64,000 nucleotides of DNA from Eledone cirrhosa (lineage: Eukaryota). The stretch is taken from positions 63,736,001 to 63,800,000 of the forward strand of contig OZ024741.1 in assembly GCA_964016885.1 (NCBI GenBank), read 5' to 3'. The position numbers were made by a program, and so were the translations under genes. Numbering within the stretch: position 1 is the first letter of the stretch; each line of letters starts with the position of its first letter. Under the pieces are notes generated by a model. The model did not search any database and had not been told where the DNA came from. It saw only the letters and a list, made by a program, of their open reading frames with translations. Below are positions 7,818 to 60,299 of this stretch, piece by piece.

Positions 7818-7997
7818 TGTTTCTACTTTTGGCACAAGGCCAGCAATTACCCAGTGCATTACTGGTACTTTATTTTATCGACCCCGTAAGGATGAAAGGC
7901 AAAGTCAACCTCGGCGGGATTTGAACTCAGATCGTAAAGGGACGTAACTATGCTGGAAAGCATGGCGTCCGACCCTCTACCGATACTGCCAATCCAC
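7818..7997 (-). mobile_element. tRNA-derived SINE with target-site duplication
   Basis: A-box tggcagtatcgg, B-box gagttcaaatcc. Direct repeat tatataaataat at 7806 and 7998. Confidence 0.9.
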
Positions 7998-8027
7998 TAT
8001 ATAAATAATGAAATAATATATACATGC

Positions 8028-8275
<248 letters not shown>

Positions 8276-8318
8276 CATGATTTTAAATAAATGGAAATTA
8301 TATTTATAAAATCATATT

Positions 8319-8383
8319 TATTTTATTATATATATTTCAAGAGCAAATAAGACAACATTGGTGCGCTTTCATCAGATAAAATA
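8319..8383 (-). ncRNA. Type I hammerhead ribozyme
   Basis: Reverse complement: tattttat-CTGATGA-aagcgca..tgctctt-GAAA-tatata-TA-ataaaata. Confidence 0.85.
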
Positions 8384-8510
8384 CAAAGTTTGTTTTATAA
8401 ATAGAGACGTACCCATGAAAATTCTACCTTATCGGTTGGAAATTCACTGGAAATTCACTATCCAGTGAATTTCCAACCGATAAGGTAGAATTTTCATGGG
8501 TACGTCTCTA

Positions 8511-8574
8511 TTTATTATCTGATGAAAGCGCACCAATTTGTCTTGTTTGCTCTTGAAATATATATAATAAAATA
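8511..8574 (+). ncRNA. Hammerhead copy, stem I shortened by an upstream deletion
   Basis: ttat-CTGATGA(8519)..GAAA-tatata-TA-ataa. Confidence 0.75.
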
Positions 8575-8709
8575 AATATGATTTTATAAATATAGTTTCC
8601 ATTTATTTAATATCATGGAATATTTACTCCAGTAAACTGTTGAGTGCTCTAAATCAGTTATAAACATTTATGTTTGTCGGACTTCCAACAAATTAAATAC
8701 AACTTCTAC

Positions 8710-8752
<43 letters not shown>

Positions 8753-9224
8753 CCATTTGTAAATAAACCATTGGCGCATTGAGTGGATGGGAATTCTTAG
8801 AAATGTATAAGATAATTGTAAACACAGTTGATTTCTATAAATAATAGACATAGAAAATCGGGTAAAATACTCTTATTGACGGATAAATTGAGCTGTATTT
8901 TTGTTGGGGTTTTTTGGTGTGTTTTTTTATAACCAAGACTTAGTTCTTTCCGTGCGCTTGAGGACGTAATTAGATCTCTTTGCATATATTTCGCCGTACC
9001 TCATGTGACCGTTTTCATGTGTTGCCGTTATGTCTTTATTTTATAAATGCAATATTTGCTCATAATATTTACATCCGCGTCCACGTGTTGATATATCTCA
9101 GTTTCAGAAAATCCCGCTTTGGTATACTAGTAATATATGTAAGAGATGCAAGTGAGCCTGCTTCTTATGAGCACTAATTTTACGTTAGGTCTTAATTATA
9201 AACTTTATTTTGTATTTGCAACAT

Positions 9225-9593
9225 AGAGTTACTGCCCTTTACCTTCTGAGCTCAAATCCCGCCGAGGTTAGCTTTGCCTTTCATCCTTACGGGGTCGATA
9301 AAATAAAGTACCAGTAATGCACTGGGGTCGATTTAATCGACTTTCCCCTCCTTAAAATTGCTGGCCTTGTGCCTATAGTAGAAATTGTTATTTATAACTT
9401 AATATAATTGTTTCTACATTTGGAAGAAGGCCAGCAATTATCCAGTATATTGCTGGTACTTTATTTTATCGACCCTGTAAGGATGAAAGGCAAAGTTAAC
9501 CTCGACGGGATTTGAGCTCAGACCGTAAAGGGCTATAACTATGCTGGAAAGCATGGCGTCCGACTCTCTACCTATACTGCCAATCCACCGCCC
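9225..9593. mobile_element. Tail-to-tail inverted pair of SINEs
   Basis: Plus copy ~9225-9390. Minus copy 9409-9593 with TSD tataacttaatataat at 9393 and 9594. Confidence 0.9.
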
Positions 9594-9697
9594 TATAACT
9601 TAATATAATGAATATATATTTGAAGAATAACTTTGTAAGTGGGATGCAAGATATGGAGAAAGGTGAAATGAAAACTGATATTATATTGCCAACATGA

Positions 9698-15626: not shown

Positions 15627-16105
15627 CTACTTCCAGATAAGTAACCCACTCCAGAACTACCTCCAGCTAAATACCTAACCCTAGACCTACCTTCAGCTAA
15701 GTAACCCACCGTAGACCTATCTCAAGCTAAGTACCCCACCTAGACTTACCTCCAGCTAAATACCCCACCCTAAACCTAACTCCAGTTAAGTATCTACCCT
15801 AGATCTATCTCTTCTCCCACGTCGTAACACTCCATCCTTCATCAGCTAAGTACCCCTCCCTAAACCTACCTCTACCTAAGTAACACACCCTAGCCTAACC
15901 TCAAGCTAATTACCTCACCTAGACATGCCTCCAGCTAATTACCCCACCTAGACTGATCTCCTGCTAAGTACCCACCTAGACCTATCTCCAGCTAAGTACC
16001 TCAACCTAGACCTACCTCCAGTTAAGTACCCCCAACCTAGACCTACCCACAGGTAAGTACCCCCACCCTTGACCTATCTCCAGCTAAGTTCCCCATCCTA
16101 GACCA
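15627..16105. repeat. ~27-bp minisatellite
   Basis: Diverged tandem units of cctagacctacctccagctaagtacccca. Confidence 0.9.
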
Positions 16106-17257: not shown

Positions 17258-17295
17258 CCGATGAGATGTAATAACATCGAAACTAGTCCAATATT
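17258..17295 (+). ncRNA. 5'-truncated hammerhead copy
   Basis: CCGATGA-gatgtaataacatc-GAAACTAGTC-caatatt. The 5' strand of stem I is absent. Confidence 0.7.
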
Positions 17296-18045
17296 CCTGT
17301 CTGGCCCTCTGGAGAATAGAGGAAATGTGTTTCCTTGAAAACTCGTATGACTCTAAAACCCGGTCCGCCTGTGTGGTTACATACAGACTAGCTGACACTC
17401 ACTGTAAAGTGTCTAGTGAAAAGCTGAGTACATGTACATATGTATACATGTGTGTATTTATATGCATACTAATACTTCCGTATACATATGTAGATGTACA
17501 CTTTAACTTAATTGTTTAAGCGTCAGTCATACAAAAGTGAGTTAGAAGCGAAACGAAATTTAATTTCGTTTCGTTATTTGTTTTTCTCGTTTCCGCTGAA
17601 CCGGTGCGTACAATGACTCACGTTCTATGCAAATTAGTCTACCCACTACTAATTTTCATAGAGAAAGCATATAACGATATGTGCTTTTACAATTCTCCAG
17701 AGAAGCCGGAAGATGGGTAAATATTGCTGATGAGATGTAATAACATCGAAACTAGTCCAATATTCCTGTCTGGCCCTCTGGAGAATAGAGGAAATGTGTT
17801 TCCTTGAAAACTCGTATGACTCTAAAACCCGGTCCGCCTGTGTGGTTACATACAGACTAGCTGACACTCACTGTAAAGTGTCTAGTGAAAAGCTGAGTAT
17901 ATGTATACATGTGTGTATTTATATGCATACTAATACTTCCGTATACATATGTAGATGTACACTTTAACTTAATTGTTTAAGCGTCAGTCATACAAAAGTG
18001 AGTTAGAAGCGAAACGAAATTTAATTTCGTTTCGTTATTTGTTTT
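17260..18045 (+). repeat. Direct repeat with 469-bp period carrying HHRs (tandem pLTR/retrozyme-like)
   Basis: 17260-~17585 is nearly identical to 17729-18045. No credible ORF. Confidence 0.9.
17720..17764 (+). ncRNA. Canonical minimal type I hammerhead ribozyme
   Basis: aatattg-CTGATGA-gatgt-aata-acatc-GAAAC-TA-GTC-caatatt. Predicted cleavage after 17757. Confidence 0.95.
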
Positions 18046-21000
18046 TATATATATATATATACAAAATCCACGTTAATGGATGGATATAGGGACACAACAT
18101 CCATACTACCTATGATACAGTCTGTTAGGTCTCTAGATCGGTTATTTTCGCTGATTCTGCTGAGGAGGTCCTCCGTGCTGTCACATATATCTGGGGACAT
18201 TTCAATGATGGGGCGTATGATCAGGGAGACGAAGTAGGAAAGTCTGTAGTTACTAGCAATGTTAGCTCCACAGACTGGCCGTGTTGGTGGTCCTGTGACA
18301 GGCTCACTGCTCGTCTTATGGTCTTTTCGAAGCCCATACAACGCTGGCACGTCATTGTTCCAGGCCTGGAATTTGTTGGCAGTCCTTTTATTGGGGTGCA
18401 TTATATTTGTCCACATCATCATATGGGCATTGAGGGTTTTCTCCCTATCCTCATGCTCTCGTGGTGTTACTTCTCTTGTGTTAGTGATGTGGGGGTTGCA
18501 TTGCCTGGATGTAGTTTGACAGACTGTCAACCGACATTCTGCCAGACTTGTCTGTTGGAAAGCATGCAATCTCTCCATTACGCGAGCGCTGCATGAGCTT
18601 ACGCAAGTCATTTGCAGATTCTTCTCCCAGTTGCTGTGCTTCGATTCTATTTTGCTTCTTGCTATACTGTTCTATAATATTTATAAGTTTAGATCTAGCT
18701 ATACTAAATTGTGCTTCTGTTTGTTCATCGACCTGCCACGGCAATTGCGTGCGTTTGTTAAATGGTAAAGTCGTGGCGTAGACTCGTCGTAGGTCGAATG
18801 GCATATCGGAAGGATTATAAAAAGTAGAATTCCAGGCTGCTGCTTTATGTGTACTCCTTGCTATTGTTATTGTTAGTTGTGTTGTTTCTATTTCTATTTC
18901 CACCAACAACCTCATGGTTGTTTCTGTCTCTCATCATTACTCCTGTCTCTTTCCTCTGGCTCATTGTTATTATCTACACTATTTTGTGTGTTCGTCCTGG
19001 TGATTTTCTCTGTCAGTATCGATAGTCACCCTTCTCCTTTCAATCCCATTGCCTTCCCTTACTTCTGTGTTACTGTCATTACCTGTTTTCTGTGTCTGTG
19101 TGTTTGTTAAGATTGTGGTGGTGGTGAGAGGCATAGACTGTGTGTTGTTGTTGTTTTTGTTGTTGATGTGTGCTGTTGTTGATGTGTGTTGTTGTTGATG
19201 TGTGTTGTTGTTGTTGTTGTCTCCGTGTATGTTATTATTGTTGTGTGTGTTGTTGTTGTTATTGTTGTTTGTGTCTGTGTGTCTGTTGTTGGAATGTGTG
19301 TTGTATGTGTGTGTGTGCGTATGTTGTTACTTTTGTTTTTGTTTTTGAGGCTCCAACGTAATTTTGTAAATTATTTTTCTATTTCTGACAAGCATTTTAT
19401 CATATTTACCTTATTATATGTGGCTTATTTAGGTGGTAGCTGTAATATCGATAATTCATCAGAGTCGACTGTAGTGTTGCCGTATATATTTGTGTTGTTG
19501 TTGTTGAATTCATCCGTTAATGAGATGTCGGCCATGTTTATACCATCAATCTTGTCTAAATATGTATCTCTATTCTCTGAAGTTTCTTGGTTTAGTTTCA
19601 TCTATTTGTGCCACTTTAATTTCTTGTTAAAGTGTTTGTCGCACTCCTGAACGATGTACTTTTCTTCGTCACATATAAGGTTTATATATATTAATTTTTC
19701 TCTTGGTGTGGTGATCTTAGTTATTTCTTGTATTAGGTTACGCTTATGTTTTTCTTGATGACTTAATTCTCTGTAAATCTTTTTTTATGTTTAGAATTAG
19801 TGTTCGTTTTAGCCTATCTCCTTGCTTTTTGGTAAGGTGTAATCTTCTTACATCGGTGTTGATTGTGTTGGTGTAAACTAGGGATGAGGCACATTATTTA
19901 TGAAGTGTAGTTGTCGAGATGTTATTGTTTTTCGTAGACAACAGAACTTGGTGGTTTTCAGTATCTTGTTAGCCTGGCTAAGGCTTACGATATTTCGTTT
20001 CTGAATTTGTTTAGCAAGATTCTTTATCTGAAAACGTGTGTTGAAACCGATATTGTTATACTTTGGGAGGGTCATGTTGCCAATAAGAAACACACGCATC
20101 AGTTGCTTTCACTCCAATTTATTATAAATTAAATTTATAAATTTAAGAATTTATAAATTTCCGGTTGGTTGGTTGGTTCCACAACCGGACGGTTGTTCAT
20201 ATATTGTCAAAGTTCTTTCGTCACACATTCTGTGACCTCTTCAGTGACTGGGGATTCTTTTTTTTGTTTTGTGCTTCTCCTTTGTTCTGTCCTACGCCAT
20301 CTTGTTTTTGTGTGTTATGTGCTTAGTTTGCGCATGTGTTACATCCGGATGTCTGTGTATGTTTTTATTTGTTTATTTATTTGTTTATTTACAAGTTACT
20401 GGTTGGTTGTTTGTTCTATGTGTGTGTGTGTGTTTTCATTTTGTCTTTAATTGTAAGTTGTGATGTTGCTTTTCCATTCATGTTTTCTATTTAATTTTGG
20501 TTGGAGTTCATTTATGTTTATTGCCTCTGTGATTTGTCCAAACATTGCGTCTATTCTGTGTGTAGATTCTATTTTTATTTCTATGTTCTCTAATTTGCCC
20601 TTATGTTCTATTTTAGCATGTTGGTGGAGTATTGATGATTCTTTTTTATCTTGAAGCTCTCGCCAGTGTTCATTTAACCGTTCTCCTATACTACGAGCTG
20701 TCTCACCTATGTACACTATATTCTTATCTTTAGATTGTCCTTCAGTACATATTATGCTATATACTACATTTCTAGTTTTACAGTTAATATGGGGGCATAG
20801 TTTACAGATTATGCATTTATTATCTATACAGGGAGGTCTTTGAAAAGGGTATGTATTGCTAATAAGTGTGTTTATGGAGGTACCTGGTCTTTCTACTATC
20901 TTAATATTAAGTTTAAGTTTATCTAGGGCGCTTCTAAATTTGTAAGCTAATTCACCTCTAGGTGTTGTATTGATAAACATTACACGCTGGTATTTATTGC

Positions 21001-21288
21001 TATGAGTTTATTCTATTAACCTTATTCCTAGTTCTTTCTATTCTATTCCAAAATTTGCTCCTATACAAGGGGCAGGTCCCATTTGTATCATTATTTACCA
21101 TTTTTTCCCATTTGGTTCTGGCTCCTCTATATACTCTGACAATATATGAACAACCGTCCGGTTGTGGAACCAACCAACCAACCGGAAATTTATAAATTCT
21201 TAAATTTATAAATTTAATTTATAATAAATAGAAGTGAAAGCATATGATGCGTGTGTTTCTTATTGGCAACATGACCCTCCCAAAGTAT

Positions 21289-21295
<7 letters not shown>
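18045..21295 (-). mobile_element. PLE (Neptune/Nematis-like Cys linker) in partial-tandem arrangement: GIY-YIG end, pLTR, N-terminus/RT start, plus inverted pLTR tail
   Basis: 20447-20980 has CIDNKCIIC..VVYSIIC..YIGETARS. 18481-18915 has PTDKSGR. 18045-18611 has LYGLRKDHK, PTRPVCG, MDVVSLYPSI. 21137-21295 is an inverted copy of ~20050-20209. (TA)n at both ends. Confidence 0.92.
20206..20248 (-). ncRNA. Type I hammerhead ribozyme in pLTR
   Basis: Reverse complement: gtca-CTGAAGA-g-gtcaca-gaatg-tgtgac-GAAA-gaac-TT-tgac. Confidence 0.75.
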
Positions 21296-21319
<24 letters not shown>

Positions 21320-23542: not shown

Positions 23543-23586
23543 TATCTTCTGATGAAGAATGTTCGTCCGAAACGTTTATTAAGCAT
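23543..23586 (+). ncRNA. Degenerate hammerhead-like motif
   Basis: CTGATGA-agaatgttcgtcc-GAAACGTTT. Stem I unclear. Confidence 0.4.
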
Positions 23587-23647
23587 TAAACTAACATATT
23601 GATGTATGTACTGAGTTGCCTGCTTTGTTGTTTCCGTTTATTTTTTG

Positions 23648-24289
<642 letters not shown>

Positions 24290-24544: not shown

Positions 24545-24760
24545 GGCGGTGGATTGGCAGAATCGGTAGAGCGTTGGACAACATGCTTCGTGACATAGAT
24601 TTAGGGCACTTTAAATTCTGAGTTCAAATCCCGCCGAGGTTAGCTTTGCCTTTCATCTTTACGCGGTCGATAAAATAAAGTACCAGTAATACCCTGAGGT
24701 GGATTTAATCGACTTTCTTTTCCTCCAGATTGCTGGCCTTGTATCTATAGTAGAGATCAT
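24545..24760 (+). mobile_element. tRNA-derived SINE
   Basis: ggcggtggattggcagaatcggtagagcg..gagttcaaatcccgccgagg.. Confidence 0.9.
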
Positions 24761-26726: not shown

Positions 26727-26953
26727 CCATTGAGATTTTTCACTAAGAAACATATTCATCATACATATAAATGTTATGATACTTTAAATGAGTATATATA
26801 TATATATACATATATAAACAAAGGGATATTTAATTTGTTGGTAATTCAACAAATATATATATATTTACAACTGATTCGAAGCACTCGACAAGTTTTCTGG
26901 AGTATAATATCAATGATATTAATAAATGGAAACTATATTTATAAAACCATATT

Positions 26954-27014
26954 TATTCTATTATATATATTTCAAGGGTACCAACACTTTGGTACGCTTT
27001 CATCAGATAAAATA
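26954..27014 (-). ncRNA. Type I hammerhead ribozyme
   Basis: Reverse complement: tattttat-CTGATGA-aagcgtaccaa-agtg-ttggtaccctt-GAAA-tatata-TA-atagaata. Confidence 0.88.
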
Positions 27015-27087
27015 CAAAGTTTGTTTTATAAGAATTGACATATCCAGGAATGAGACCTTAAGGGTTCAAGTTTTACCTGGATAGCAC

Positions 27088-27140
27088 CTGATGAAAGGGT
27101 ACCAAAGTTTTGGTACCCTTGAAATATATATAATAGATTA
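27088..27140 (+). ncRNA. Hammerhead copy starting at the inversion junction (no 5' stem I)
   Basis: CTGATGA-aagggtaccaa-agtt-ttggtaccctt-GAAA-tatata-TA. Confidence 0.75.
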
Positions 27141-27321
27141 TATATGATTTTATAAATATAGTTTCCATTTATTAATATCATTGATATTATACTCCAGAAA
27201 ACTTGTCGAGTGCTTCAAATTAGTTATAAATATATATATATTTGTTGAATTACCAACAAATTAAATATCCCTTTTCTTATAAATAGCTCCTTTAATGTTG
27301 AGCACTTTAAACTATAACTGA

Positions 27322-29580
27322 TTGCAAAAATTAATAATGGAATTCTATAGAATTTATTCTTCGTTAAAGGATGTACCCTTACCTAAAAATAAGGAATATC
27401 TAAAACAACTCATAGAAAAATCAGACTCCTTCATAAGAAGACTTAGATGGCGTGCTTTCCATTTTGATATAAAATCGGAAAACAAAATAAATAAAACCAA
27501 GTACAATTTTGATCTTATTTTCAAATCTAAGAAAAATCCACCTTGCAACAAACTACTAGCCGAATTCAAAAACGAAATAATCTCCATCATACAGAACATT
27601 AAATTTAAAAGGAACCAATTTATTGGCCAGGATTACCTTAAAGGCCTCAAAAACAAAATAGACAGTCTAGAAAAAATAAAGAAGATCCTTGTAAAATCTG
27701 ACAAAACCAATAATTTATATGGTATGGAAAAGGACGAGTATAATAACCTAATACTGAAGGAACTCAGGAAAAACTACAAATGAAGATCTTTCAACCCTAA
27801 ATAGAGACGCTTCGGAAATTATTTATAAATTAGGCATTCAAAATAAGACAGAACCCTTTATACCTAGAAAACCGAAGATTAATTTGAAGGACCACAAAAG
27901 AAATTTTGAAGTAGAACTACCAGTCAGACTCATTGCACCATCTAAATCTGACTTAGGCATAATTAGAAAGCATATACTAGATAGAATTATACAACTACTT
28001 AAAGAAAAATCACACCTTAAACTATGGAACGGTACTAATGAAATAATAGATTGGTTTAAAAACATAAAATTAAAACATAAGAAAAATTATTTCAAATGGA
28101 AATTACAAATTACTACTCCTCTATTACCCCTAGATTACATAATAAGGCACTTATTTACGCTTCTAAACATACAGACATATCTGGTGAAGAAATGAATATC
28201 ATTCTAACCGCACGTAAAACTCTAATAGAATGTAATAACCATCTCTGAACAAGAGCCGACAGATCAATCAATTTTGATATTATTATGGGATCATCTGGCT
28301 CGGCGCAAGTAACAGACATCGTTGGATTATTTATTAATAATGTACTGCATAGAAAAATGCCAGAGATGACCGGAGGTATATATCGGGACGATATGTTACT
28401 TTTAATTGAAAACCATAGCAATAGTGAAATTAATCGGAAAAAGAAATCCATAATACAGTTTTTCAACAACTACAACCTTAATTTAGAAATCGAGAATAAT
28501 TATAAAATCGTTAACTTTTTAGATGTATCTTTAAACCTTAGCTCAAGTCTTTATTATACATTCCATAAAAATAATGAAAATGTAAATTACGTAAGTTTAA
28601 ATTCTAATCATCCTAGAAATATAAAAAATATTATTGTCAATAGTGTCCAGCAACGGATTTCACGCATCTCCGATAATAAAAATATTTTTGATGATAAGGC
28701 AGAATATTACAATGAGGCTTTACAGAGAGCAGGATACTCCAATAAAATTAAATACTTAGACAGCAATAACATGATAAATCATCCTAAAATTCATTATAAT
28801 AACAATAAGCAATTCAACTTAAATAGTAAACCAAACAAAAAAACTAGAACTAGAAATATTATTTGGTACTCTCCGCCATTCTCATTAGGCGTTAAAACAC
28901 CTGTAGCAAAACTATTTTTCAAAGCACTGGATAAGTGTTTTCCTAAAGCCCACAGATACCATTCTATTTTTAACAGACACACTATAAAACTATCTTACTC
29001 TACTACTATGAACATAGCACAAAATATAAATAGAATTAATAATAGAAACTTAAATTTAAACCTTAACCAGACAAATCAAGCTAACAATAATAATATTTCT
29101 AATAACAATATTCATACTAATAGTACCGTTCCTAGTAACAACAACTCCCGAAAATGTAACTGTAGAATTGAATCAAACTGCCCTTTACAAAACAATTGCT
29201 TAGACAAAAACTTAATTTATAAATGCACAATAAAAACTAGTGACAAAATATTTAACTATATAGGTGCCACTTCTACAAAATTCAAAGAACGCTGGTACAA
29301 CCACAAACATATTTAATAGGTCCGATAAAAAATCTTCCACTTCACTTTCACATCTAATTTGGAATTTAAAGGTCAATAACATAGACTATTCAATATCTTG
29401 GGGAACGATTTCGAAAGCACCTGCATACCGAAATATGGCTTCTCAAGAATCTGTCAATTGTGTATCGAGGACATTTTTTATATAATTAACTGTCAAAATT
29501 CTATTAATTTAAAAAGCGAAATATTTAATTCTTGCAGACATCGCCAAAAATCCACTTTCCGAAGTATTTTTAATCTATAA
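27322..29580 (+). pseudogene. PLE RT + GIY-YIG polyprotein, disrupted by frameshifts and stops (possibly Hydra clade; unverified)
   Basis: FIRRLRWRAFHF, VKSDKTNN, LKDHK..PVRLI, MGSSGSAQVTDIVG, IYRDD, VNFLDV, CNCRIESNCPLQNNC, LIYKC..YIGAT, CQLC, SCRH. Confidence 0.93.
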
Positions 29581-30786
29581 TATTCATTACACTTGACTAA
29601 TTCTTATACACCTTTAAATTGATCCTGTTATTTACTGAGATTTATTTAAACAAACTTTTAATTTCTTAAATAATTTTCTTAAATTTAGTATTTTTACCAA
29701 TTGATATTATTTTCCTAATGATACTCTTCATAATCTATTTTTTTATATTTATATATATATATATATATATATTTTTAGATTGATACTTTTTAATTGATAT
29801 TCTGAAAGATATCCTCTTTACGATAGTTCTTCTAAATGCACTCTCGACTTTCTAATAATACATTTTTCCTCTCTTTAATCTTCCAACTTTTTACACATCT
29901 TTCGACGTAGAAAATATATAATTGAAATTCTCATCCTTGAAAACATGTAATATAAAATACCCTATAATCTCACACAAAATAATATATAATATTCTCTACA
30001 TACTTTCCGCATTTTCTAAGAAAATTATTCATCAATTTTAATAGTTTAACAAATAATATTGCAGTTATCTTTTCCTTTACAATTGAGCAAACATAGACAT
30101 AATAACATGTATGATAAATTATGTAATTTCGCTAAATTAATAATGTTCTGAAAATATTTTCAATGTTTGGATGAAAATATTTGAAACTACAAATTGTTCT
30201 TCTCTTATAATTTGAACTACGCCTTTTTCTTAAATATGTATGTAAAATGTAAAATCAACATCCTTCGTAACTCATATTAGAAATGTAAACAAATAAATAA
30301 GTGTGTTTTATATTCATATAATCACCAATAATTTATACAATTAATAATCTATATAGATATTTACATACTTACAACCTGTTGCAATATAATAAGATAAAAT
30401 GTACTTACAACCAAAATTCTTCATATAATCTAATTGATTATATATATGATATTATAACTCATAATTTAGCTAAATATTTTTTTTCATTCTGGAATCATAT
30501 TCTACCACTCCAACAAACTTAATTCTTAACGTTTCAATCTTTTTAAATTCACGTAAATACAAGCTTTTCTTTCTACATGCATATATATCCTAATAATTAT
30601 CTAAATCTACCTAGCGTCTAAAAATAACGTTTTTTTTAGCCCTACGCCTCAATCTCATTTGAATATTCATCTTAATAATTTGAAATATTTGTTTTTTTCC
30701 TCTCTTCCCCCTTTTTCCTTTTACTATCCAGGTAAAACTTGAACCGTTAACGTCTGGATATCTCAATTTTTATAAAACAAATTTTG

Positions 30787-30847
30787 TATTTTATCTCATG
30801 AGAGCGTACCACAGTTTTGGTACCCTTGAAATATATATAATAGAATA
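30787..30847 (+). ncRNA. Hammerhead copy with core mutation (CTCATGA)
   Basis: tattttat-CTCATGA-gagcgtacca..tggtaccctt-GAAA-tatata-TA-atagaata. Confidence 0.7.
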
Positions 30848-30888
30848 AATATGGTTTTATAAATATAGTTCCCATTTATTAATATCAT

Positions 30889-30920
<32 letters not shown>

Positions 30921-30924
<4 letters not shown>

Positions 30925-32119
30925 GATATTAACAAATGGAAACTATATTTATAAAACCATATTTATTTCATTATACATATTTCAAGGACACCAAGTTAAA
31001 TTATGGCGTGCTTTCATCAGACAAAATATAATATAGATCAGTTTTATAAATAAATATTGACATACCCTTAAAAAATGCAACCATTGCTGTTGGAAGCTCC
31101 CGGATAGTGGAGTTGTTTAATTATATTATTATTAGTATTGGATATTTTTATTTGTAAAATAAGCCGTTGGGTTACAGAGAAAGAAAAAGATAAAGAAGGA
31201 GAGAGAGAAAAAGAGAGAGAGAGAGAAAAGAGAGAGAGATACCAAAACAACAGAGAGAGAAAGATATAAAGAGAGAGAGGAGACCGAGAGAAGAGGAGAG
31301 AACGAAAACTCTAAGTCATATCTTGTTGAGTTAACTTAACAATTGAGATGAAATGAATAAATAAAATTAGAAATGTTAATAATCATGAATGGAATATACA
31401 TATATAATATGAGAAATTAATCATTGTTTAAATATATTATATGTTTAGTTAATCATTTAAAAATTGAGATCAATATATTAAAAATTGGGATCTATACATT
31501 AAGAAATCCATATATTGCTAAAGAACTACATATCATATAACACGTATACACACGCAAAAATATATATAAATATATATACACATTTATAAAATACATAACA
31601 TATCTAACTACGTATATAATATATACACACAAAGCATAAAGGATTCTTTAATTTAATTTAAGATATAGGAATCTTAAAAATGTTATAATTGTTAAAATAT
31701 TAAAGGAAATTTTATGTTATACACACTTTATGTTATTAAACAAAATTTTTTATATAAGTTTTATAAGATTCTCTCTCTGTTGTTTTTGTCTCTCTCTCTC
31801 TCTCTTTTCTCTCTCTCTCTCTCTCTTTTTTTCTCTCTCTCCTTCTTTATCTTTTTCTTTCTCTGTAACCCAACGGCTTATATTAAAAATAAAAATATCC
31901 AATACTAATAATAATATAATTAAACAACTCCACTATCCGGGAGCTTCCAACAGTAATGGTTGCGTTTTTTAAGGGTATGTCGATATTTATTTATAAAACT
32001 GATCTATATTATATTTTGTTTGATGAAAGCACACCATAATTTAACTTGGTGTCCTTGAAATATGTATAATGAAATAAATATGGTTTTATAAATATAGTTT
32101 CCATTTGTTAATATCGTAT
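30921..32119. mobile_element. ORF-less element with ~340-bp inverted pLTR arms
   Basis: Arms 30921-31260 and 31770-32119. HHR intact on minus (30964-31028) and TTGATGA-mutated on plus (32012-32076). Confidence 0.88.
30964..31028 (-). ncRNA. Type I hammerhead ribozyme
   Basis: Reverse complement: tattttgt-CTGATGA-aagcacgcca..tggtgtcctt-GAAA-tatgta-TA-atgaaata. Confidence 0.82.
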
Positions 32120-32677
32120 GTTTACTCCTAATATGTAATATCACTTACATATAAGAATATATGAATAATGATCAGAATAATGGGCAATATAAGTAAAATG
32201 GCCTGGCCTGTCAACATATATTTATGGGGATGGTATATTCATGTATAACGGGATTATTTAGTTATACATAGCTATACATAAGTGCGGATATCTACAAATA
32301 CGCATAAATATGCAGAAATTAGTTTGTAAAAATATATTTAAACATTCATATCGGAATGAATGTGGAAAGGATTATACTCTAAAAAGAACAAGAAGGAAAA
32401 GAACCGTAGCTACCTCCTTTCTCTCCACTCAATAGTAGAAGAGGAAAACACAATTTCACCAGCTCTTAGCTTCCAGTTTATAAATGGTGGTGGATTCAGG
32501 GAAAGATAACATTTGTAATGTACTGTTAAATAATACAAAACTAGATAATAAATATCAGGTATGATATGCATTATAAAGTTTCAATAAAAAATGATCTTAC
32601 TATTTTTATATAGTATACAATTTCTCTATTTAAACTTTATAATGGATATTGTGTATTTCAAGCATTATTTGATTATA

Positions 32678-32865
32678 GGGCGGTGGATTGGCAGTATCAG
32701 TAAAGCGTCAAATACCATGCTTTGCAGCATAGAGTTATGGCCTTTTACGTTCTGAGTTCAAATCCCACCGAGGTTAACTTTGCCTGTCATCCTTACGGTA
32801 TCGATAAAATAAAGCACCAGTAATGCACTGGAGTAATTGCTGGCCTTGTGTCAAACGTAGAACCA
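32678..32865 (+). mobile_element. tRNA-derived SINE
   Basis: Full family consensus from gggcggtggattggcag to gtagaacc. Confidence 0.9.
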
Positions 32866-33144
32866 AATAGAAACATTTATTTGATTAGAGAGTATTGAAG
32901 TTTGCTTGAAGTATTGTGGAACAATAAGTAAATATCTTTAAGTCGTTTGGAAGCCTCGACAATGCAAATGGGTAAATCTCCAGGTAACAAGGTCCGGTGG
33001 TGGAGAGAGAGATGTAAGTGGGTGTACGTTGAGATGCGTGGTGTGTATAAGATGTGTGAGATGTGTAGAATGAAGGGAAGAGTATAAAGGATAAAATAGA
33101 AATAACAACACAAGAGAGAGTTACCTTGGGAGAGATTTAATAGT

Positions 33145-34515: not shown

Positions 34516-34571
34516 ACTGCCTGATGAGGTCATAGCCATTCAATGGCTATCATCGAAATATATATAGCAGT
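34516..34571 (+). ncRNA. Type I hammerhead ribozyme (solo pLTR remnant)
   Basis: actgc-CTGATGA-ggt-c-atagcca-ttcaa-tggctat-c-atc-GAAA-tatata-TA-gcagt. (TA)n lies ~45 bp downstream. Confidence 0.88.
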
Positions 34572-34612
34572 AAATAAAGGATTATGAGTTCATGCAATTG
34601 ACTTATGTTTCG

Positions 34613-34754
<142 letters not shown>

Positions 34755-36454: not shown

Positions 36455-37189
36455 ATTTGTAGTTTTTCCAAATTGAAGGATGAGTATTTAAACATTTTAT
36501 TTTATTCTGAGTTAAGGCTCTATTGATTTTTCCCTGGATTTCACAAAATTCTATGGAATAATCTATGTCTTGATTTTTTTTTTGATTGAGTTTGAATTAT
36601 TTTCCCACATCTTACGTTAACCATTTTTCTATTTTGACGTTATAGTCACTTATATATTATGAAATACTGTTGGCTTCACGCTCACAATAATTTCTATACT
36701 TTAATTTATATTTATTTAAAACAGCACCTACGTACGTTTGCCCAGTTGGGCTTCTCAAGGGCATAAATAACCAAAAGTGTTCCTTACATTGCTCGGAAAG
36801 AGTTTTTGGGGTTAAGTTCACGTCATGATTCATTGCCCGCAAAAATAGCGTGTTTTGATTTTGCAGCAGGTCAGGGGAGGTAACTTTGGCCGGTGTTAGG
36901 GCAGTCTTTCCCGGACAAATTTTTATCCGTTACAAGATGTGGTTACAACCTTACCATTGTCGATACGCACAGGGCCATGTAACCAACGCTTATTTTGAGC
37001 CGTTTGTTTTTCCGCACCTGTTTGCCTGGGAGGTTTGAGGCTGGGTGTGGTAGGCATGGTTAGTTTCCTGGGTGTTATTTTGCAGCGCCTGCCCGCCAGG
37101 GTGTTAAAACTTATTGCAGGGAGATCCGGTGCACGGTTTCACTCCTCATCCTTAACCCATCTGAAGAAGGATATTTTTTAGTGATGTGT

Positions 37190-37605
37190 TCAACTTATTG
37201 CTGCTTCAGCTCTGCTGTTGATGAGCTCGTGGGGTACAGTTATGATGTGGTAGAGCTCCATGAGGCAAAGATCGCACTTCCTCTTGAAGTTGAACGGTGT
37301 AGCCCTGCCGACAATATCCCAGTGCGTGGAGAAGCTGATGTTTAAGTCATTTAGTGATGTGATGTAGTCCGCGAGCGAAGTGGAGTGTCTTAATTTCTTA
37401 TTTGTGAAAGAGTGGAGATGTGTTCGAAACCTAATTTTGAACGGGCCGGAGGTAGCCCCTATATAATGTTTAACGCTATTGTGGCTAGTTACAGTGCATC
37501 TATATATAACCCTATCACTCTTTCCGAGCAATGTAAGGAACACTTTTGCTTATTTATGCCCTTAAGAAGCCCAACTGGGCGAAACGTACGTAGGTGCTGT
37601 TTTCA
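37190..37605 (-). pseudogene. PLE GIY-YIG endonuclease fragment
   Basis: VIYRCTVT..HYIGATSGPFKIRFRTH..STSLADYI..CDLC. 37518-37603 is an inverted copy of ~36718-36801. Confidence 0.85.
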
Positions 37606-37651
37606 ATAAACATGTTTTAACGGTCTATTCTCCGATTTCTTACTTTTCCAC

Positions 37652-37690
<39 letters not shown>

Positions 37691-40309: not shown

Positions 40310-41165
40310 GTAAAACGTCGGACACCATGCTTCGTGGCATAGAGTTACCTCCCTTTACGTTATGAGTTCACATCCCAGTTTTGCCTTTCATCCTTACGGG
40401 GTCAATAAAATAAAGTACCAGTAATGCACCGGGGTTGATTTAATCGACTCCCCCTCCGCCAAAATGGTTGGCCTTGTGCCTAAATCAGAAACCATTTGGC
40501 AGTATCGGTAGAGGGTCGGACGCCATGCTTTCCAGCATAGTTACGTCCCTTTACGATCTGAGTTCAAATCCCGCCGAGGTTGACTTTGCCTTTCATCCTT
40601 ACGAGGTCGATAAAATAAAGTACCAGTAATGCACTGGGTAATTGCTGGCCTCGTGTCAAAAGTAGAAACAATCGTGGATTGGCAGTATCGGTAACGAGTC
40701 GGACACCATGCTTTGCAGCATAGAGTTACGGCCCTTTACAATCTGAGTTCAAATCCGCCGCGGTTAACTTTGCCTTTCATCCTTAGGGGGATCGATAAAA
40801 TAAAGTACCAGTAATACACTGAGATAATTGCTGGCCTTGTGCCAAAAAGTAGAAACAATTATGTATGTTTGTTGTGTGTGTGTACCAGTAACGTCCTGGG
40901 GTCGATGTAATCGACTCCTCTACCTCAAATTACTGGCCTTGTGCCTATACTAGAAATCATTATATATACATATATATATATATAATTGTTTCTACTTTTT
41001 GGCACAAGGCCAGCAATAACCCAGTACATTACTGGAACTTTATTTTATCGACCCCGTAAGGATGAAGGACAAAGTTAACCTCGACGGGATTTGAACTCAG
41101 ACCGTAAAGGGACATAACTATGCTAGAAAGCATGACGTCCAACCCTCTACCGATACTGACAATTC
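40310..41165. mobile_element. SINE cluster: tandem plus-strand copies followed by an inverted copy
   Basis: Plus copies at ~40310, 40497 and 40675, with a tail at ~40883. Minus copy ~40984-41165. Confidence 0.9.
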
Positions 41166-41214
41166 ACCGTCCATATAATGTGCATAAACATATACCCAAA
41201 ATGAGAAGAAAGGA

Positions 41215-41608: not shown

Positions 41609-41643
<35 letters not shown>

Positions 41644-41644
<1 letters not shown>

Positions 41645-42853
41645 ATAAATTCCAAACCTGGAAGCAGGGACTAGAGAGAAAGGGTCTCAAAGTCAACATG
41701 ACAAAGACTAAGGTCCTTGTAAGTAGACGAGAAAACAGAACCCAGATCCCCTCAGGGAAATGGCCTTGCTCAGTATGTAGGAAAGGTGTAGGTAGGAACT
41801 CCATTCTCTGCCCCAAATGCAAACAATGGGTACACAAGAGATGTAGCGGGATCTCAGGAAACTTAATTAAGAATGTAGGATTCACATGCAGCAGCTGTGC
41901 TGAAACAGCAAGCAGCAAACAGCCACAGGAAACAAGTACCACCAATCTCTGGGAGGGCCCTGTAGAAACAGTAGACAGCTTCTGCTACCTAGGTGACCGA
42001 ATTAGCAACGGAGGTGGGTGTTCAGAAAGTACAATAACTAGGGTAAGAACGGGATGGAAGAAGTTTACGGAACTACTACCACTGCTAGCTGCAAAAGGCT
42101 TCTCCCTCAGAATGAAAGGCAGACTGTATGGTGCGTGTATCCGAACAGCGATGTTGCATGGTAGTGAGACCTGGGCGCTGAAGGTGGAAGACTTACGTAG
42201 ATTAGAGAGAAACGAAGCCTGCATGCTCCGATGGATGTGTAACAGTAATATACGTGAACGACAAAGCATAAATGAATTGAGAGAGAGACTGAGCATAAGA
42301 GGAATCAAATGCTGTGTGCAGGAGAGGCGGTTGCGCTGGTATGGACATGTGATGCGTATGAAGGATGACAGCTGCATAAAAAGGTGCAGAGCACTAGAAG
42401 TTGATGGAAACCGCTGAGTGGGGAGACCCAAGATGACCTGGGATGAGGTGATAAAAGCCGACCTTACCCAATTACAACTCTCAAAGACAATGACACACGA
42501 CCGTGACTTCTGGCGTCACGCAGTAATACAGAGTACCCGACCTCCCATGGGTACATGCTGAAGCATATAAACAATATGCCCCCACACCCCCCACCGCAAG
42601 GTGGTCGTGGAGGTGCCACGGCAAAAAGGCACCCAGCCCACACTGTAAAGTGGACGTGTAGGCGCCACGAAAAAGCACCCAGCACTCACTGTAAATGAGG
42701 TTGGTGTTAGGAAGGTCATCCAGCTGTAGAAATCAAGCCAGATCAGTTCCTGTATGAGCAAGGCATGGTCAGCCGACCAGACACTGCACACAACAGAACA
42801 ACCCGTCTAACCAATGCTAGCGTGGAAGAACGGACGTAAAACGGTGATGATGA
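41644..42853 (+). mobile_element. RTE-type LINE 3' part with a PHD-like Cys/His insert
   Basis: GLKVNMTKTKVL, then CSVC..CPKCKQWVHKRC..CSSC, then VDSFCYLG, HGSETW, RLRWYGHV. Premature TGA at 42415; frame continues GRPKMTW to a stop at 42561. (TGA)n tail. Confidence 0.9.
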
Positions 42854-51159: not shown

Positions 51160-51814
51160 TTATATATATATATATGTGTGTATATATGTATATATGTATA
51201 TATATGTCAGGTCACCAGTTGGTGCTACTGGTAACATGTATCCCAGTACAACCTGTCTCATGGTCGGGTCGTTGGCGACTAAACTGGCAACCCCACCAAG
51301 GTTTCTTGGTGAGGTGGGTGACTTTGGACATCCTGCAGGACTAAAAACAAAACCTGTCAAAGGGCAAAGGAGCTCTTAAGAGTCAATGGCCATCCAAAAT
51401 CACCGGGAGAGATGACCCCTTAGCCTTTGTCAAGGCAGAATTCTAGGAGAAGGAAAACTCTGATATAACACCTGCAACCCTGATGGTATCCAATGATGTT
51501 GACTTGTTCTTCTTTTTGGTAAATATCATCTTGGTTAAGAGAGTGGGACTGGCTTTGTGCAGTGCCTTTGCTCACTATAAAAGCTTCACGGCACAGGCAT
51601 TGCTTTATATCTGGAGATCTCTCTGCACTTGTCGTCACATGGTGCCATGGGCCCGGCACTATGTGCCAATAATTGTCACAAGTGTAGTGTTTGTACCATA
51701 GTTTTCAAGTCGCTGGGTGGACTAGAGGGTCACACTCGTTCAGCGCATCGGTAGGGGTTCTCCTACATGGATATAAAGTAGTGGCCGTGCTCGAAAACGA
51801 GTTGGCAGCCACCA

Positions 51815-53561
51815 TGTATATATATAGAGAGAATATAGAGAGAGAGGAAGGAGCAGCCATTGGTGTTAGCATTGCAGGCGACATAGCTAACTTATTCATG
51901 GTATGGTGGGACAGTAGACTTAAACTTAAACTTAGAGAACAATTAGAAGACCCCTTAACTCTGATAATGTACTCCCGCTACGTTGATGATATAAACATCG
52001 TAGTTAAAACACCCCCACTAGAGAACAGTCAGGAATTAGAGAAAAACACAATGGAAAGCATCCAGCAAATAGCTAACTCCATCCACCAGAGTATTAGAGT
52101 TACTATAGACTACCCAAGTAAACACCCCAACCATCGATTACCTGTACTAGACACAGAGCTCTGGTTAGATACCATTAATAACAAAAAACAAATCCTCCAT
52201 TCCCATTATGCCAAACCCATGACTTCCAAATATCTGATCCACCGAAACTCAGCTGTTTCGGACCATACCAAAATCAACATACTGATTGAGGATTTGGTAC
52301 GGGTGATGAGAAACGTGTCCCGCATGTGCAACCCCGAAGAACTAGAGAGACACATACAACACTTCATCCACCGTATGCAGTTCTCTGGTTACAATCAGAG
52401 AGATAAAATCAGAGTGTATAGAGGAGCCAGAACCAAATGGGAAAAAATGGTAAATAATGACACAAATGGGACCTGCCCCTTGTATAGGAGCAAATTTTGG
52501 AATAGAATAGAAAGAACTAGGAATAAGGCTAATAGAATAAACTCATGTTATGATAGCAATAAATACCAGAGTGTAATGTTCATCGATACAACCCCTAGAG
52601 GTGAATTAGCTTACAAATTTAGAAGGGCCCTAGACAAACATAAACTCAATATTAAGATAGTAGAAAGACCAGGTACCTCCGTAAAAACACTTATTAGCAA
52701 GACATACCCTTTTCAAAGAACCCCCTGTATAGATAAGAAATGTATAACCTGTAAATTAAGCCCCCATATTAACTGTAAAACTAGAAATGTAGTATATAGC
52801 ATAAGATGTACTGAAGGACAATGTAGAGACAAAAATATAGTGTACATAGGTGAGACAGCTCGTAGTGTAGGGGAACGGATAAATGAACACTGGCGAGACC
52901 TTCAAGATAGTAAAGAATCATCTGTACTCTACCAACATGCTAAAATAGAACATAAGGGTAAATTAGAGAACATAGAAATAAAAATAGAATCTACACACAG
53001 AAAAGACGCAATGTTTAGACAAATCACAGAGGCAATAAACATAAAAGAATTACAACCAAAATTAAATAGAAAATATGAGTGGAACAGCAACATCACAACT
53101 TACAATTAAGGACAAAATGAAAACACACACGCACATAGAACAAACAACCAACCTGTAACATGTAAATAAACAAATAAATAAACGAATATAAACACACACA
53201 GACACCCAGATGTGGCGCATGCGCAGACTGAGCACACAACACACACACAGAAACAAAATGGCGTAGGACAGAACAAAGGAGAGGCACAAAAACAAAGAAA
53301 AGAATCCCCAGTCACTGAAGAGGTCACAGAATGTGTGACGAATGAACTTTGACAATATATAAACAACCATCTGATTATGGAACCAACCAACCAACCGGAA
53401 ATTTATAAATTCCTAAATTTATAAATTTATTATAATAAATTGAAGTGAAAGCAACTGGTGCGTGTGTTTCTTATTGGCAACATGACCCTCCCAAAGTATA
53501 ACAATATCGGTTTCAACACACGTTTTCAGATAAAGAATCTTGCTAAACAAATTCAGAAACG

Positions 53562-53565
<4 letters not shown>
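51815..53565 (+). mobile_element. 5'-truncated PLE, same family as 18045-21295, with 3' pLTR
   Basis: Open frame EGAAIGVSIAGDIANLFM, YSRYVDD, LPVLDT, CIDKKCITC, VVYSIRC..YIGETARS to stop 53109. The 3' UTR matches the reverse complement of ~19990-20446. Ends in (TA)n. Confidence 0.93.
53311..53353 (+). ncRNA. Hammerhead copy (GAAA>GAAT)
   Basis: gtca-CTGAAGA-ggtcacagaatgtgtgac-GAAT-gaactt-tgac. Confidence 0.65.
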
Positions 53566-53649
<84 letters not shown>

Positions 53650-53786
53650 ATTAAAATACTGGAGCGTGTTGGAGTTAAACACCCTCTTCGTATTATAGAA
53701 ATGACAGTAAAAGGTATAGCTCAATGCAGTTAAACAGAGCCAAAAAATTAAGAGAGTAAAACAAAGAAGCCTTTAATACATCAAAA

Positions 53787-53843
53787 GTTTTTATTAGCCG
53801 ACAATGTTTCGTCCTATTAAGGACTCATCAGGGCAATTAAAAC
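53787..53843 (-). ncRNA. Canonical type I hammerhead ribozyme
   Basis: Reverse complement of 55901-55957. Confidence 0.92.
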
Positions 53844-55900
53844 AACAAGAAGTAATATCGGCAGATACAAGCCGGAAGCTCCGAAGAATATGGAGTGTAC
53901 ATACACTAAAGTCTTGCAAAAATATATAATAAAAATAAAAATAATAAAAATATATAATAAGAATAACTAAGGATGTATATAACATTAAGAACCATATTAC
54001 AAATATAGTCCAAAGCAACTAACCTAAAGCTAAACAAAGGTGGTTATATAGAGCAGGAATTATATATAACACAATGTAATATAATATAATACATTATAAT
54101 AATATACCTTTACCAACATTAAAATTACAATTAAAAATCAAAAGGTACAATATATACGTGTATATATGTGCGCACACACACACACACACACACACACAAC
54201 AATACGCACATCTATGTTCAACTACACAAATTAAGCCTTATTAGGAGTTTGAATATAAAAATAAGCATGATAAGAGTGAAAATAATAATAATACCAATAC
54301 ATCTACCTAATATACATGAGGTAATAATATGATATAATTACAAGAAACACATATAATACATAATAAACAATAAAATTATATAATTCAATATAATATAATA
54401 GATAATCCCCGGTTAATTTACACAAACAATATAGATGTCACAATAATAATATAATGATAATATGTTAACAATGTACTAACATTTACAATAAACAATATAT
54501 ACAAATCGATTCATACTGGGTTACAATAAATAATTATAATCAACCGGAAATTACAAAACAAAAACAAATATATACACATTTAGGTCTCACATGCGGTTAA
54601 GTAGTTAGGTAAAAACTAAGGAAAACAATCACTGTAAATGACTCAAAACCCTATTTGATAAATTAATATTAAAAATATTAAAACTATCCAATAAGGTAGT
54701 ATAATATTAGCTGTAGTTTAAGTCATTAAAGTTTTTAAACTTTAATGTTTCGTTACAAATGTTTGTAAACAAATTTTTGTAATTTCCGGTTGATTATATT
54801 TATTTATTTTATTCTATATTTTATATTCTATTTACTATTCACTGTCTGGCATTTACTTACACATCCACATATGTCTGTCTACTAACCTTGTAATTATAAG
54901 TATTTATATATTATTTTATGTCAATTTATTTTATATAATATATTATATTATATTGTATTGTAACATTGATCCTTATTACTTACTGTTCATTATATGTAAC
55001 ATTATGATATTTAAACTTTATATATCATGTAAGATGTCTGTATTTTTGTAATATTGTAATATTGATCCTTATTACTTACTGTTCATTATATGTAACATTA
55101 TGATATTTAAACTTTATATATCATGTAAGATGTCTGTATATTTTTTTCTGTACCATCATAATTTTTTCTGTACCATCATAGTGTTTTTGAGTATTGTATA
55201 ATTTATTTTTCCTCATTTACTCTGTAACCCAGTATGAATCGATTTGTATATATTGTTTATTGTAAATGTTAGTACATTGTTAACATATTATCATTATATT
55301 ATTATTGTGACATCTATATTTTTTGTGTAAATTAACCGGGGATTATCTATTATATTATATTGAATTATATAATTTTATTGTTTATTATTTATTATATGTG
55401 TTTCTTGTAATTATATCATATTATTACCTCATGTATATTAGGTAGATGTATTGGTATTATTATTATTTTCACTCTTATCATGCTTATTTTTATATTCAAA
55501 CTCCTAATAAGGCTTAATTTGTGTAGTTGAACATAGATGTGCGTATTGTTGTGTGTGTGTGTGTGTGTGTGCGCACATATATACATGTATATATTGTACC
55601 TTTTGATTTTTAATTGTAATTTTAATGTTGGTAAAGGTATATTATTATAATGTATTATATTATATTACATTGTGTTATATATAATTCCTGCTCTATATAA
55701 CCACCTTTGTTTAGCTTTAGGTTAGTTGCTTTGGACTATATTTGTAATATGGTTCTTAATGTTATATACATCCTTAGTTATTCTTATTATATATTTTTAT
55801 TATTTTTATTTTTATTATATATTTTTGCAAGACTTTAGTGTATGTACACTCCATATTCTTCGGAGCTTCCGGCTTGTATCTGCTGATATTACTTCTTGTT

Positions 55901-55957
55901 GTTTTAATTGCCCTGATGAGTCCTTAATAGGACGAAACATTGTCGGCTAATAAAAAC
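55901..55957 (+). ncRNA. Canonical type I hammerhead ribozyme
   Basis: gttttaattgcc-CTGATGA-gtcct-taat-aggac-GAAAC-att-GTC-ggctaataaaaac. Confidence 0.92.
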
Positions 55958-55992
55958 TTTTGATGTATTAAAGGCTTCTTTGTTTTACTCTC

Positions 55993-56053
<61 letters not shown>

Positions 56054-60117: not shown

Positions 60118-60235
60118 TTACGGCCCTTTATGGTCTGAGTTCAAATCCCGCCGAGGTTAACTTTGTCTTTCATCCTTACGGGGTCGATAAAATAAAGTAC
60201 CAGTAATACACTGTGCAAAAGTAGACACAATTATT
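60118..60235 (+). mobile_element. SINE (5'-truncated)
   Basis: Family core. Confidence 0.85.
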
Positions 60236-60299
60236 ATTAGCCTAAATTTTATTGTGCCTCGTCACAGCATTACCGAACACATCTCTCTTCGCCTTGGGT

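Follow-up and report, generated by a model that had tools for sequence, protein, structure and literature searches.

The unit at positions 53647–55997 of the window, the 64,000-nt stretch of DNA analysed here (microsatellite-rich animal DNA without N), is very likely the product of one recent insertion event, in which a Penelope-like element (PLE) of the endonuclease-positive (EN+) kind entered a (TA)n microsatellite as two 5′-truncated cDNA copies joined head to head. Two opposed copies of one 3′ end face outward onto (TA)n and are joined near 54774/54775. The layout has already been described for PLEs, and the unit most likely does not represent a new kind of mobile element. The first-pass annotation had treated it as a non-autonomous PLE derivative that looks like a TIR element and moves as a unit through RNA. 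Its PLE origin is supported by the hammerhead type, the geometry and the (TA)n target, and arrival via an RNA intermediate is likewise supported. The proposed anatomy and the movement as a unit did not survive, as described below. The features are:

53565..53646, no strand: (TA)n tract of the left flank, presumed target; a separate PLE copy (51688–53567, plus strand) ends at its opposite side
53647..53746, minus strand: one-sided extension ("tail") of the left copy, 100 nt, running on from the arm without a break as far as (TA)n; it ends 153 nt downstream of the cut
53747..54525, minus strand: left arm, comprising the left copy's non-coding 3′ end with its pseudo-LTR region
53797..53834 (core 53831–53800), minus strand: type I hammerhead with intact core, outward; predicted cut after 53800
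54522..54558, minus strand: block A of the left copy, inverted match to 54775–54811, joined directly to the arm
54559..54774, minus strand: segment X, read as upstream sequence of the left copy only, with an 11-bp-stem palindrome at 54724–54747
54769..54780, no strand: likely head-to-head junction, in a short palindrome (5-bp stem) read from the sequence, weak alone in AT-rich DNA
54775..54811, plus strand: block A of the right copy, where that copy is truncated on its 5′ side
54812..55222, plus strand: block B, 411 nt, right copy only, with one 96-nt and one 20-nt tandem duplication
55223..55997, plus strand: right arm, comprising the right copy's non-coding 3′ end with its pseudo-LTR region; ends 51–53 nt past the cut
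55910..55947 (core 55913–55944), plus strand: type I hammerhead identical to the left one, outward; predicted cut after 55944
55997..56048, no strand: (TA)n tract of the right flank, presumed target

The inverted arms (779 nt and 775 nt) are 98.97% identical, in agreement with the ~780-bp arms with few mismatches described previously. They differ by four substitutions, two of which are CpG-to-TpG changes in the right copy, and by a single 4-nt indel within a (CA)n run. The resulting divergence of 0.5% is the lowest among the six head-to-head units examined in the window, which bears out the young age claimed for the unit. The right arm meets (TA)n at 55997, while the left arm goes on for 100 nt, to 53647, before (TA)n begins. 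The inverted repeats are thus not at the very termini, and the unit runs 100 nt further left than the arm–spacer–arm anatomy originally proposed, which is better read as two copies placed head to head. Measured from the hammerhead cut, the ends lie at 51–53 nt on the right and at 153 nt on the left, 100 nt apart. The extension is found at the left end only, and no second copy of it occurs within the 64-kb window; it is probably a tail, the long ends of two sibling units described below (U1 and U3) lying at 144 and about 152 nt. Because both flanks are (TA)n, a target-site duplication is unreadable.

The two hammerheads are identical, outward-facing and intact in their cores, and the predicted cut site is 53 nt from the arm end in both. 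To this extent the earlier description of identical hammerheads near the outer ends holds, but helix III is of a dimer-dependent kind and the left end of the unit is at 153 nt. Helices I, II and III comprise 3, 5 and 3 bp, respectively, and helix III is palindromic with a 1-nt loop. Rfam model RF00163 matches both copies with 31.7 bits (E = 6e-4), just below the gathering score of 34, and the 26-nt hammerhead motif occurs twice in the window with ≤3 mismatches, compared to no occurrences in 100 shuffles. Type I hammerheads with a short palindromic helix III near the PLE 3′ end are described in the available part of PMC4209133, and the modelled folding of the motif fits the dimer-dependent metazoan PLE type given there. 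The isolated 60-nt motif is predicted to favor an inactive fold, with the active monomer 4.5 kcal/mol above the minimum and an ensemble share of about 1.5e-4. The double-hammerhead dimer is predicted at −28.5 kcal/mol, compared to −30.6 kcal/mol for the best co-fold and −27.8 kcal/mol for two monomers. Each strand holds only one sense copy of this dimer-type motif. In a full-length transcript of either strand, the sense hammerhead is predicted to pair with the antisense copy, at a thermodynamic cost of 71.4 kcal/mol to free it. With the sense hammerhead fully paired in the hairpin, the foldback would mask the ribozyme rather than present it. Thus, of the suggestion that either strand gives a hairpin with a ribozyme near its 3′ end, the long hairpin remains, but the ribozyme would be buried within it; a transcript starting inside the unit would escape the hairpin. 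Rfam matches to miRNA and snoRNA models were microsatellite noise, far below their gathering scores.

The region between the arms had been described as a 700-bp AT-rich non-coding spacer. It is 697 nt long and has no coding capacity, but at 21.5% GC, compared to 24.9% in the arm, it is only slightly more AT-rich, and it holds a second inverted pair (54522–54558 and 54775–54811; 37 nt, 35 of them matching) as well as a switch in strand polarity. The sense strand of the arm is T-rich. The cumulative A–T skew reaches its maximum at 54704, and when the polarity changepoint is fitted with a Markov model trained on the arm, the best position is 54774 (range 54648–54779 within 3 lnL). The switch therefore falls inside the spacer and not at its edges, with a weak signal over 54576–54775. 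The left copy, 1128 nt from 54774 to 53647, is then ordered X-A-arm-tail on the minus strand; the right copy, 1223 nt from 54775 to 55997, is ordered A-B-arm on the plus strand. Since block A of the left copy joins its arm directly, this copy is without block B. Neither X nor B has a mirror counterpart, and the junction contains neither (TA)n nor host DNA. The 11-bp-stem palindrome lies ~30 nt from the junction. A stem of ≥10 bp was found in 7% of resamples of the whole interior and in 0.4% of resamples of a 101-nt junction segment that was picked post hoc; a long palindrome is present at one of the four sibling junctions with a defined site. The junction-adjacent palindrome lends weak support to a PLE head-to-head origin. 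The three interior rearrangements (the missing block B and the two tandem duplications) are many for an arm divergence of 0.5%, and could reflect an earlier non-autonomous history.

Segment X was considered as a decayed second pseudo-LTR on the basis of two 10-nt matches, but 106–333 of 1000 shuffles scored equally under three scoring schemes, as did 45–438 of 1000 in the comparison with the U3 end, and this reading was dropped as unproven. Block B has no GT-AG ends on either strand and was rejected as an intron. The unit contains no direct repeat of its 3′ end, i.e., no partial tandem pseudo-LTR. This absence bars only the claim of a complete element, the pseudo-LTR being optional in truncated copies.

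The longest stop-free frame in the interior, at 85 codons, falls just short of the 95th percentile of 300 Markov resamples (86 codons). Pfam gave no match for the two longest plus-strand frames of the unit, a PLE RT-EN profile (an HMM of six database homologues) matched none of its six frames, and tblastn with nine PLE ORF pieces from the window and the six homologues found nothing significant in the unit. There is thus no RT plus GIY-YIG ORF in the unit, which is what one would expect of short truncations. Between the arm and the other PLEs of the window no significant similarity was seen, so the PLE identity comes from hammerhead type, geometry and target, not from RT homology. Local alignments were made between the 3′ end of the unit and five sibling ends, and between the arm and five sibling bodies; nine of the ten scores were within the null. 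The remaining one, a family link to the U5 end, was reached by 10 of 300 resamples and was discounted given ten tests. Searches of the masked window with blastn and nhmmer returned low-complexity matches only, and there was no significant DNA similarity to the Hydra-like U3. No second copy of the unit and no parent element was found in the 64-kb window, which is a weak test of copy number. A scan of bacterial and archaeal genomes yielded 0 loci and is uninformative on the host genome. No tRNA genes were found. Five short motifs were absent from the supplement of PMC8557442, where FASTA line breaks could mask a match, and three were absent from the short supplement of PMC13282606, in the 5,371 characters of its available text. 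The unit has both the (TA)n target and the canonical hammerhead, as in the Hydra clade. Since PMC8557442 lists (TA)n targets for Naiads too, the target is not diagnostic of that clade.

Five other inverted-arm units in the window were picked from self-BLAST and then aligned, as a selection rather than an exhaustive annotation of the window:

U1, 8275–8710: arms of 158 nt, 9-nt gap, ORF-less, two intact outward hammerheads, 92-nt one-sided tail, (TA)n at both ends
U2, 19990–21296: arms of 164 nt around a GIY-YIG remnant, extension of 60 nt, (TA)n at the right end only
U3, 26810–30890: near full-length broken RT-EN element with a 197-nt inverted 5′ arm, (TA)n at both ends
U4, 30922–32118: arms of about 349 nt, 489-nt interior, ORF-less, one hammerhead intact and the other mutated, (TA)n at the left end only
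U5, 36708–37652: arms of 96 nt, endonuclease remnant (RT-EN profile match), 39-nt extension, (TA)n on the right only

PLE ORF pieces are present in three of the five (U2, U3 and U5), and U1 and U4 are ORF-less. The sibling interiors range from 9 nt to a whole ORF and the arms from 96 to 349 nt, with an arm divergence of 1.9–5.6%, compared to 0.5% in the unit described here. All five have (TA)n on at least one side, and two have it at both ends. The cut-to-end distances are 52–56 and 144 nt in U1, 51 and about 152 nt in U3, 48–50 nt in U4 and 50 nt for a lone hammerhead at 34521. Those of U1, U3 and U4 match the present unit, though there is no detectable sequence similarity, and its 100-nt one-sided extension resembles those of U1 (92 nt) and U3 (about 100 nt). 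Tracts of (TA)n are reused: U3 and U4 share 30892–30923, and the copy at 51688–53567 shares the left tract of the unit. In U3, the ORF pieces (about 27331–29580) match the RT-EN profile, and their motifs agree by eye with Hydra-clade alignments. They are followed by about 1310 non-coding nt (22.5% GC over the 1141 nt measured), which exceeds either copy here, so that in a family with such a long 3′ region truncations of 1.1–1.2 kb would be ORF-less. U1, a nearly perfect palindrome, is a miniature of the unit, and U5 has degenerate hammerhead cores in both of its 96-nt arms. The pseudo-LTR of U4 resembles that of U3, and the U4 body does not align to the U3 3′ region; such bodies may thus be captured or fast-changing DNA.

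Pieces that resemble PLEs and lack an inverted arm lie at about 158–2085, 17260–18046, 18045–18930, 34521–34616 and 51688–53567, so the head-to-head layout is common in the window but not universal. The sequences at 19990–21296 and 51688–53567 are 92% identical copies of another PLE family with a C-terminal GIY-YIG and a CX4CXXC linker, a motif by which the family appears Neptune- or Nematis-like. The piece at 17260–18046 is a partial head-to-tail tandem (326 nt, 97.5% identical) that ends at (TA)n, with a type I hammerhead at 17727–17757 and a mutated one in the first copy; it may represent a pair of PLE pseudo-LTRs or something retrozyme-like. The lone hammerheads or similar motifs at 34521–34616 and 23549–23650, each a short distance upstream of a (TA)n tract, are probably very short PLE 3′ ends.

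According to Craig et al. (2021; PMC8557442), a typical PLE has an inverted 5′-truncated copy at its 5′ end, which leads to inverted repeats around the unit and a tail at one end, with a published length of 30–40 nt; the mechanism of head-to-head inverted insertions is called undefined there. Arkhipova et al. (2013; PMC3846280, in excerpt) describe head-to-head junctions with palindromes, for which self-priming was proposed, and long unique spacers before the 3′ pseudo-LTR. With the EN+ PLE insertions of these two sources, the unit shares head-to-head inverted repeats, a one-end extension, a hammerhead near the 3′ end, a junction palindrome and a microsatellite target. It differs in that both copies end before any ORF, the tail is 100 nt rather than 30–40 nt, and the copies differ by the 411-nt block. 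On four structural features read from the DNA, rather than on protein sequence, the unit is classed as a truncated EN+ PLE insertion. A one-off truncated insertion, which the first-pass annotation had set against its own reading, thus fits the locus best.

The closest described counterpart is Penelope-13_HM of the Hydra clade (PMC8557442, Files S1 and S2). Its inverted copy measures 966 nt, identical hammerheads lie close to the two ends on opposite strands, and its target is (TA)n. It is likened to the unit by description, not by sequence: both have an inverted 5′-truncated copy of about 1 kb and identical opposite-strand hammerheads, but Penelope-13_HM has an (incomplete) protein and a 4-1-4 helix III, as do most listed Hydra-clade motifs, compared to 3-1-3 here. 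Opposite-strand hammerhead pairs about 100–700 bp apart also appear in the available part of PMC4209133. Non-LTR retrozymes are likewise ORF-less and PLE-related, with a type I hammerhead, but are defined in the accessible text of bioRxiv 10.64898/2026.07.22.740005 as head-to-tail tandem repeats with a hammerhead in each unit. Such head-to-tail units are absent here, where two copies in opposite orientation leave one sense ribozyme per strand, and a retrozyme identity was rejected. Rearranged Drosophila Penelope copies (PMC3681739, in excerpt) have long inverted repeats able to give dsRNA, as here, and in those copies siRNAs map to the inverted regions. The part of PMC12910113 at hand contains nothing on the head-to-head layout.

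In the version of the PLE insertion that we prefer, an RT-GIY-YIG protein encoded elsewhere would nick both strands of the (TA)n tract, and each 3′-OH would prime a cDNA that began at either of two start sites, these lying about 100 nt from one another. With one start site per cDNA and both sites in use, a tail would be left at one end only. Both cDNAs would stop early and then be joined at their truncated ends. We give this dual-nick, two-start-site priming about even odds among the ways in which such an insertion could have been made. The available portion of PMC11167929 reports that a PLE protein, a predicted dimer, cleaves and extends both strands, that two RT start sites bound the tail, and that hammerhead cleavage is not needed in vitro; no model for inverted copies is offered in that portion. 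The main alternative for the junction, which we regard as possible though clearly less probable, is self-priming at the palindrome with template jumps, as in the excerpt of PMC3846280. Simple self-priming would yield a mirror image around the junction, of the kind seen in U1; since X and B are unmirrored, this route needs extra jumps.

On this reading, the unit is ORF-less since both copies (1128 and 1223 nt) ended before leaving a long 3′ non-coding region that is AT-rich. The pseudo-LTR would have brought the hammerheads along as passengers, and their identity would reflect recent copying from a single family. Block B, the 411 nt by which the copies differ, may go back to two variants of the template, to a jump of the RT or to a deletion after insertion. 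The parent RNA could have come from an autonomous element with a long 3′ region or from a non-autonomous monomer, either of which fits. The locus has probably reached a dead end; read-through transcription, if it occurred, would provide dsRNA for RNAi or editing.

The best surviving alternative, which we nevertheless consider improbable, is a replicating non-autonomous foldback family, whose 2.3-kb unit would be transcribed in full and moved in trans by a PLE protein. In a specific form, held to be just as improbable, the foldback RNA would be recognised by a PLE RT-endonuclease at its tail-bearing 3′ end and copied whole, with ribozymes silenced by the hairpin, yielding the appearance of a TIR or MITE element. 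Pseudo-LTRs do mobilise unrelated sequence in trans (PMC3846280, in excerpt), and non-autonomous PLEs exist (PMC8557442). A bottom-strand transcript would carry 100 nt past the short start site, the window holds two other ORF-less foldbacks, and the interior rearrangements suggest some history. Against such a family, and against the TIR-like element moving as a unit in the first-pass annotation, stand the asymmetric ends, the polarity switch within the spacer, the related siblings U1, U3 and U4, which differ in arm length and interior, and the predicted pairing of the only sense hammerhead on each strand. Moreover, reverse transcriptase would presumably need to cross a 775-bp duplex, and the window, a weak test, contains no second copy. 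We found no report of a replicating ORF-less PLE foldback family in the open-licence literature.

It is still less probable that a single PLE fragment came first and acquired its mirror copy via a later DNA-level inverted duplication or a second independent insertion. The reuse of (TA)n tracts as targets in this window and the difference between the copies in block B are in keeping with this. The junction, however, is without (TA)n or host DNA, both 3′ ends are at PLE-typical positions facing their own (TA)n, and the layout recurs in five other units.

Foldback and MITE elements of the TIR class have long inverted arms and no ORF. A cut-and-paste DNA transposon of this type with a captured PLE end in its arms would explain the long near-perfect arms, the lack of an ORF and the TA-rich flanks, but it is highly improbable: on the left, 100 nt separate the inverted repeat from (TA)n, the spacing between hammerhead and end agrees with that of PLE ends in the window, and tandem subrepeats of the kind known from Foldback arms are absent beyond short AT-rich ones. 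Furthermore, in contrast to Foldback and MITE elements, the unit has asymmetric ends, the hallmarks of an RNA element and no readable target-site duplication. An assembly or read-foldback artefact, the other counter-case named in the first-pass annotation, might be suspected because PLE inverted structures trouble assemblies (PMC8557442) and both flanks are microsatellites, but we give it hardly any credence, since the arms differ at four sites, two of them CpG-to-TpG transitions, the interior is unique and unmirrored, the tail is at one end, and five older units (1.9–5.6% arm divergence) have the same plan.

Read as a PLE insertion, the unit is one more case of a published layout, from a family unmatched to any named one, and by itself it matters little. 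The six head-to-head units in the window bear on how PLEs make inverted insertions, and three of the six have paired end positions at about 50 and about 150 nt past the hammerhead cut. If the two halves of the present unit, which differ by block B, were traced to two source loci, this would support two-nick priming on two templates. ORF-less PLE foldbacks may well be annotated automatically as TIR or MITE elements, and should the unit turn out to replicate as a whole, it would rank as a non-autonomous element in which the outward distinction between class I and class II is blurred.

PLEs make up 6.83% of the Octopus vulgaris genome according to the available text of PMC13282606. Several further repeats were seen in the window. 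A dispersed SINE-like repeat of about 180 nt is abundant (7805–8010, 9215–9610, 24545–24760, 32672–32883, 40317–41180, 60118–60240 and others); we take it to resemble octopus SINEs. A 261-codon frame at 41632–42417, presumably RTE-like, resembles the C-terminal part of a LINE reverse transcriptase. Finally, a 30-nt minisatellite at 15627–16104 comprises 16 copies and is C-rich on the plus strand.
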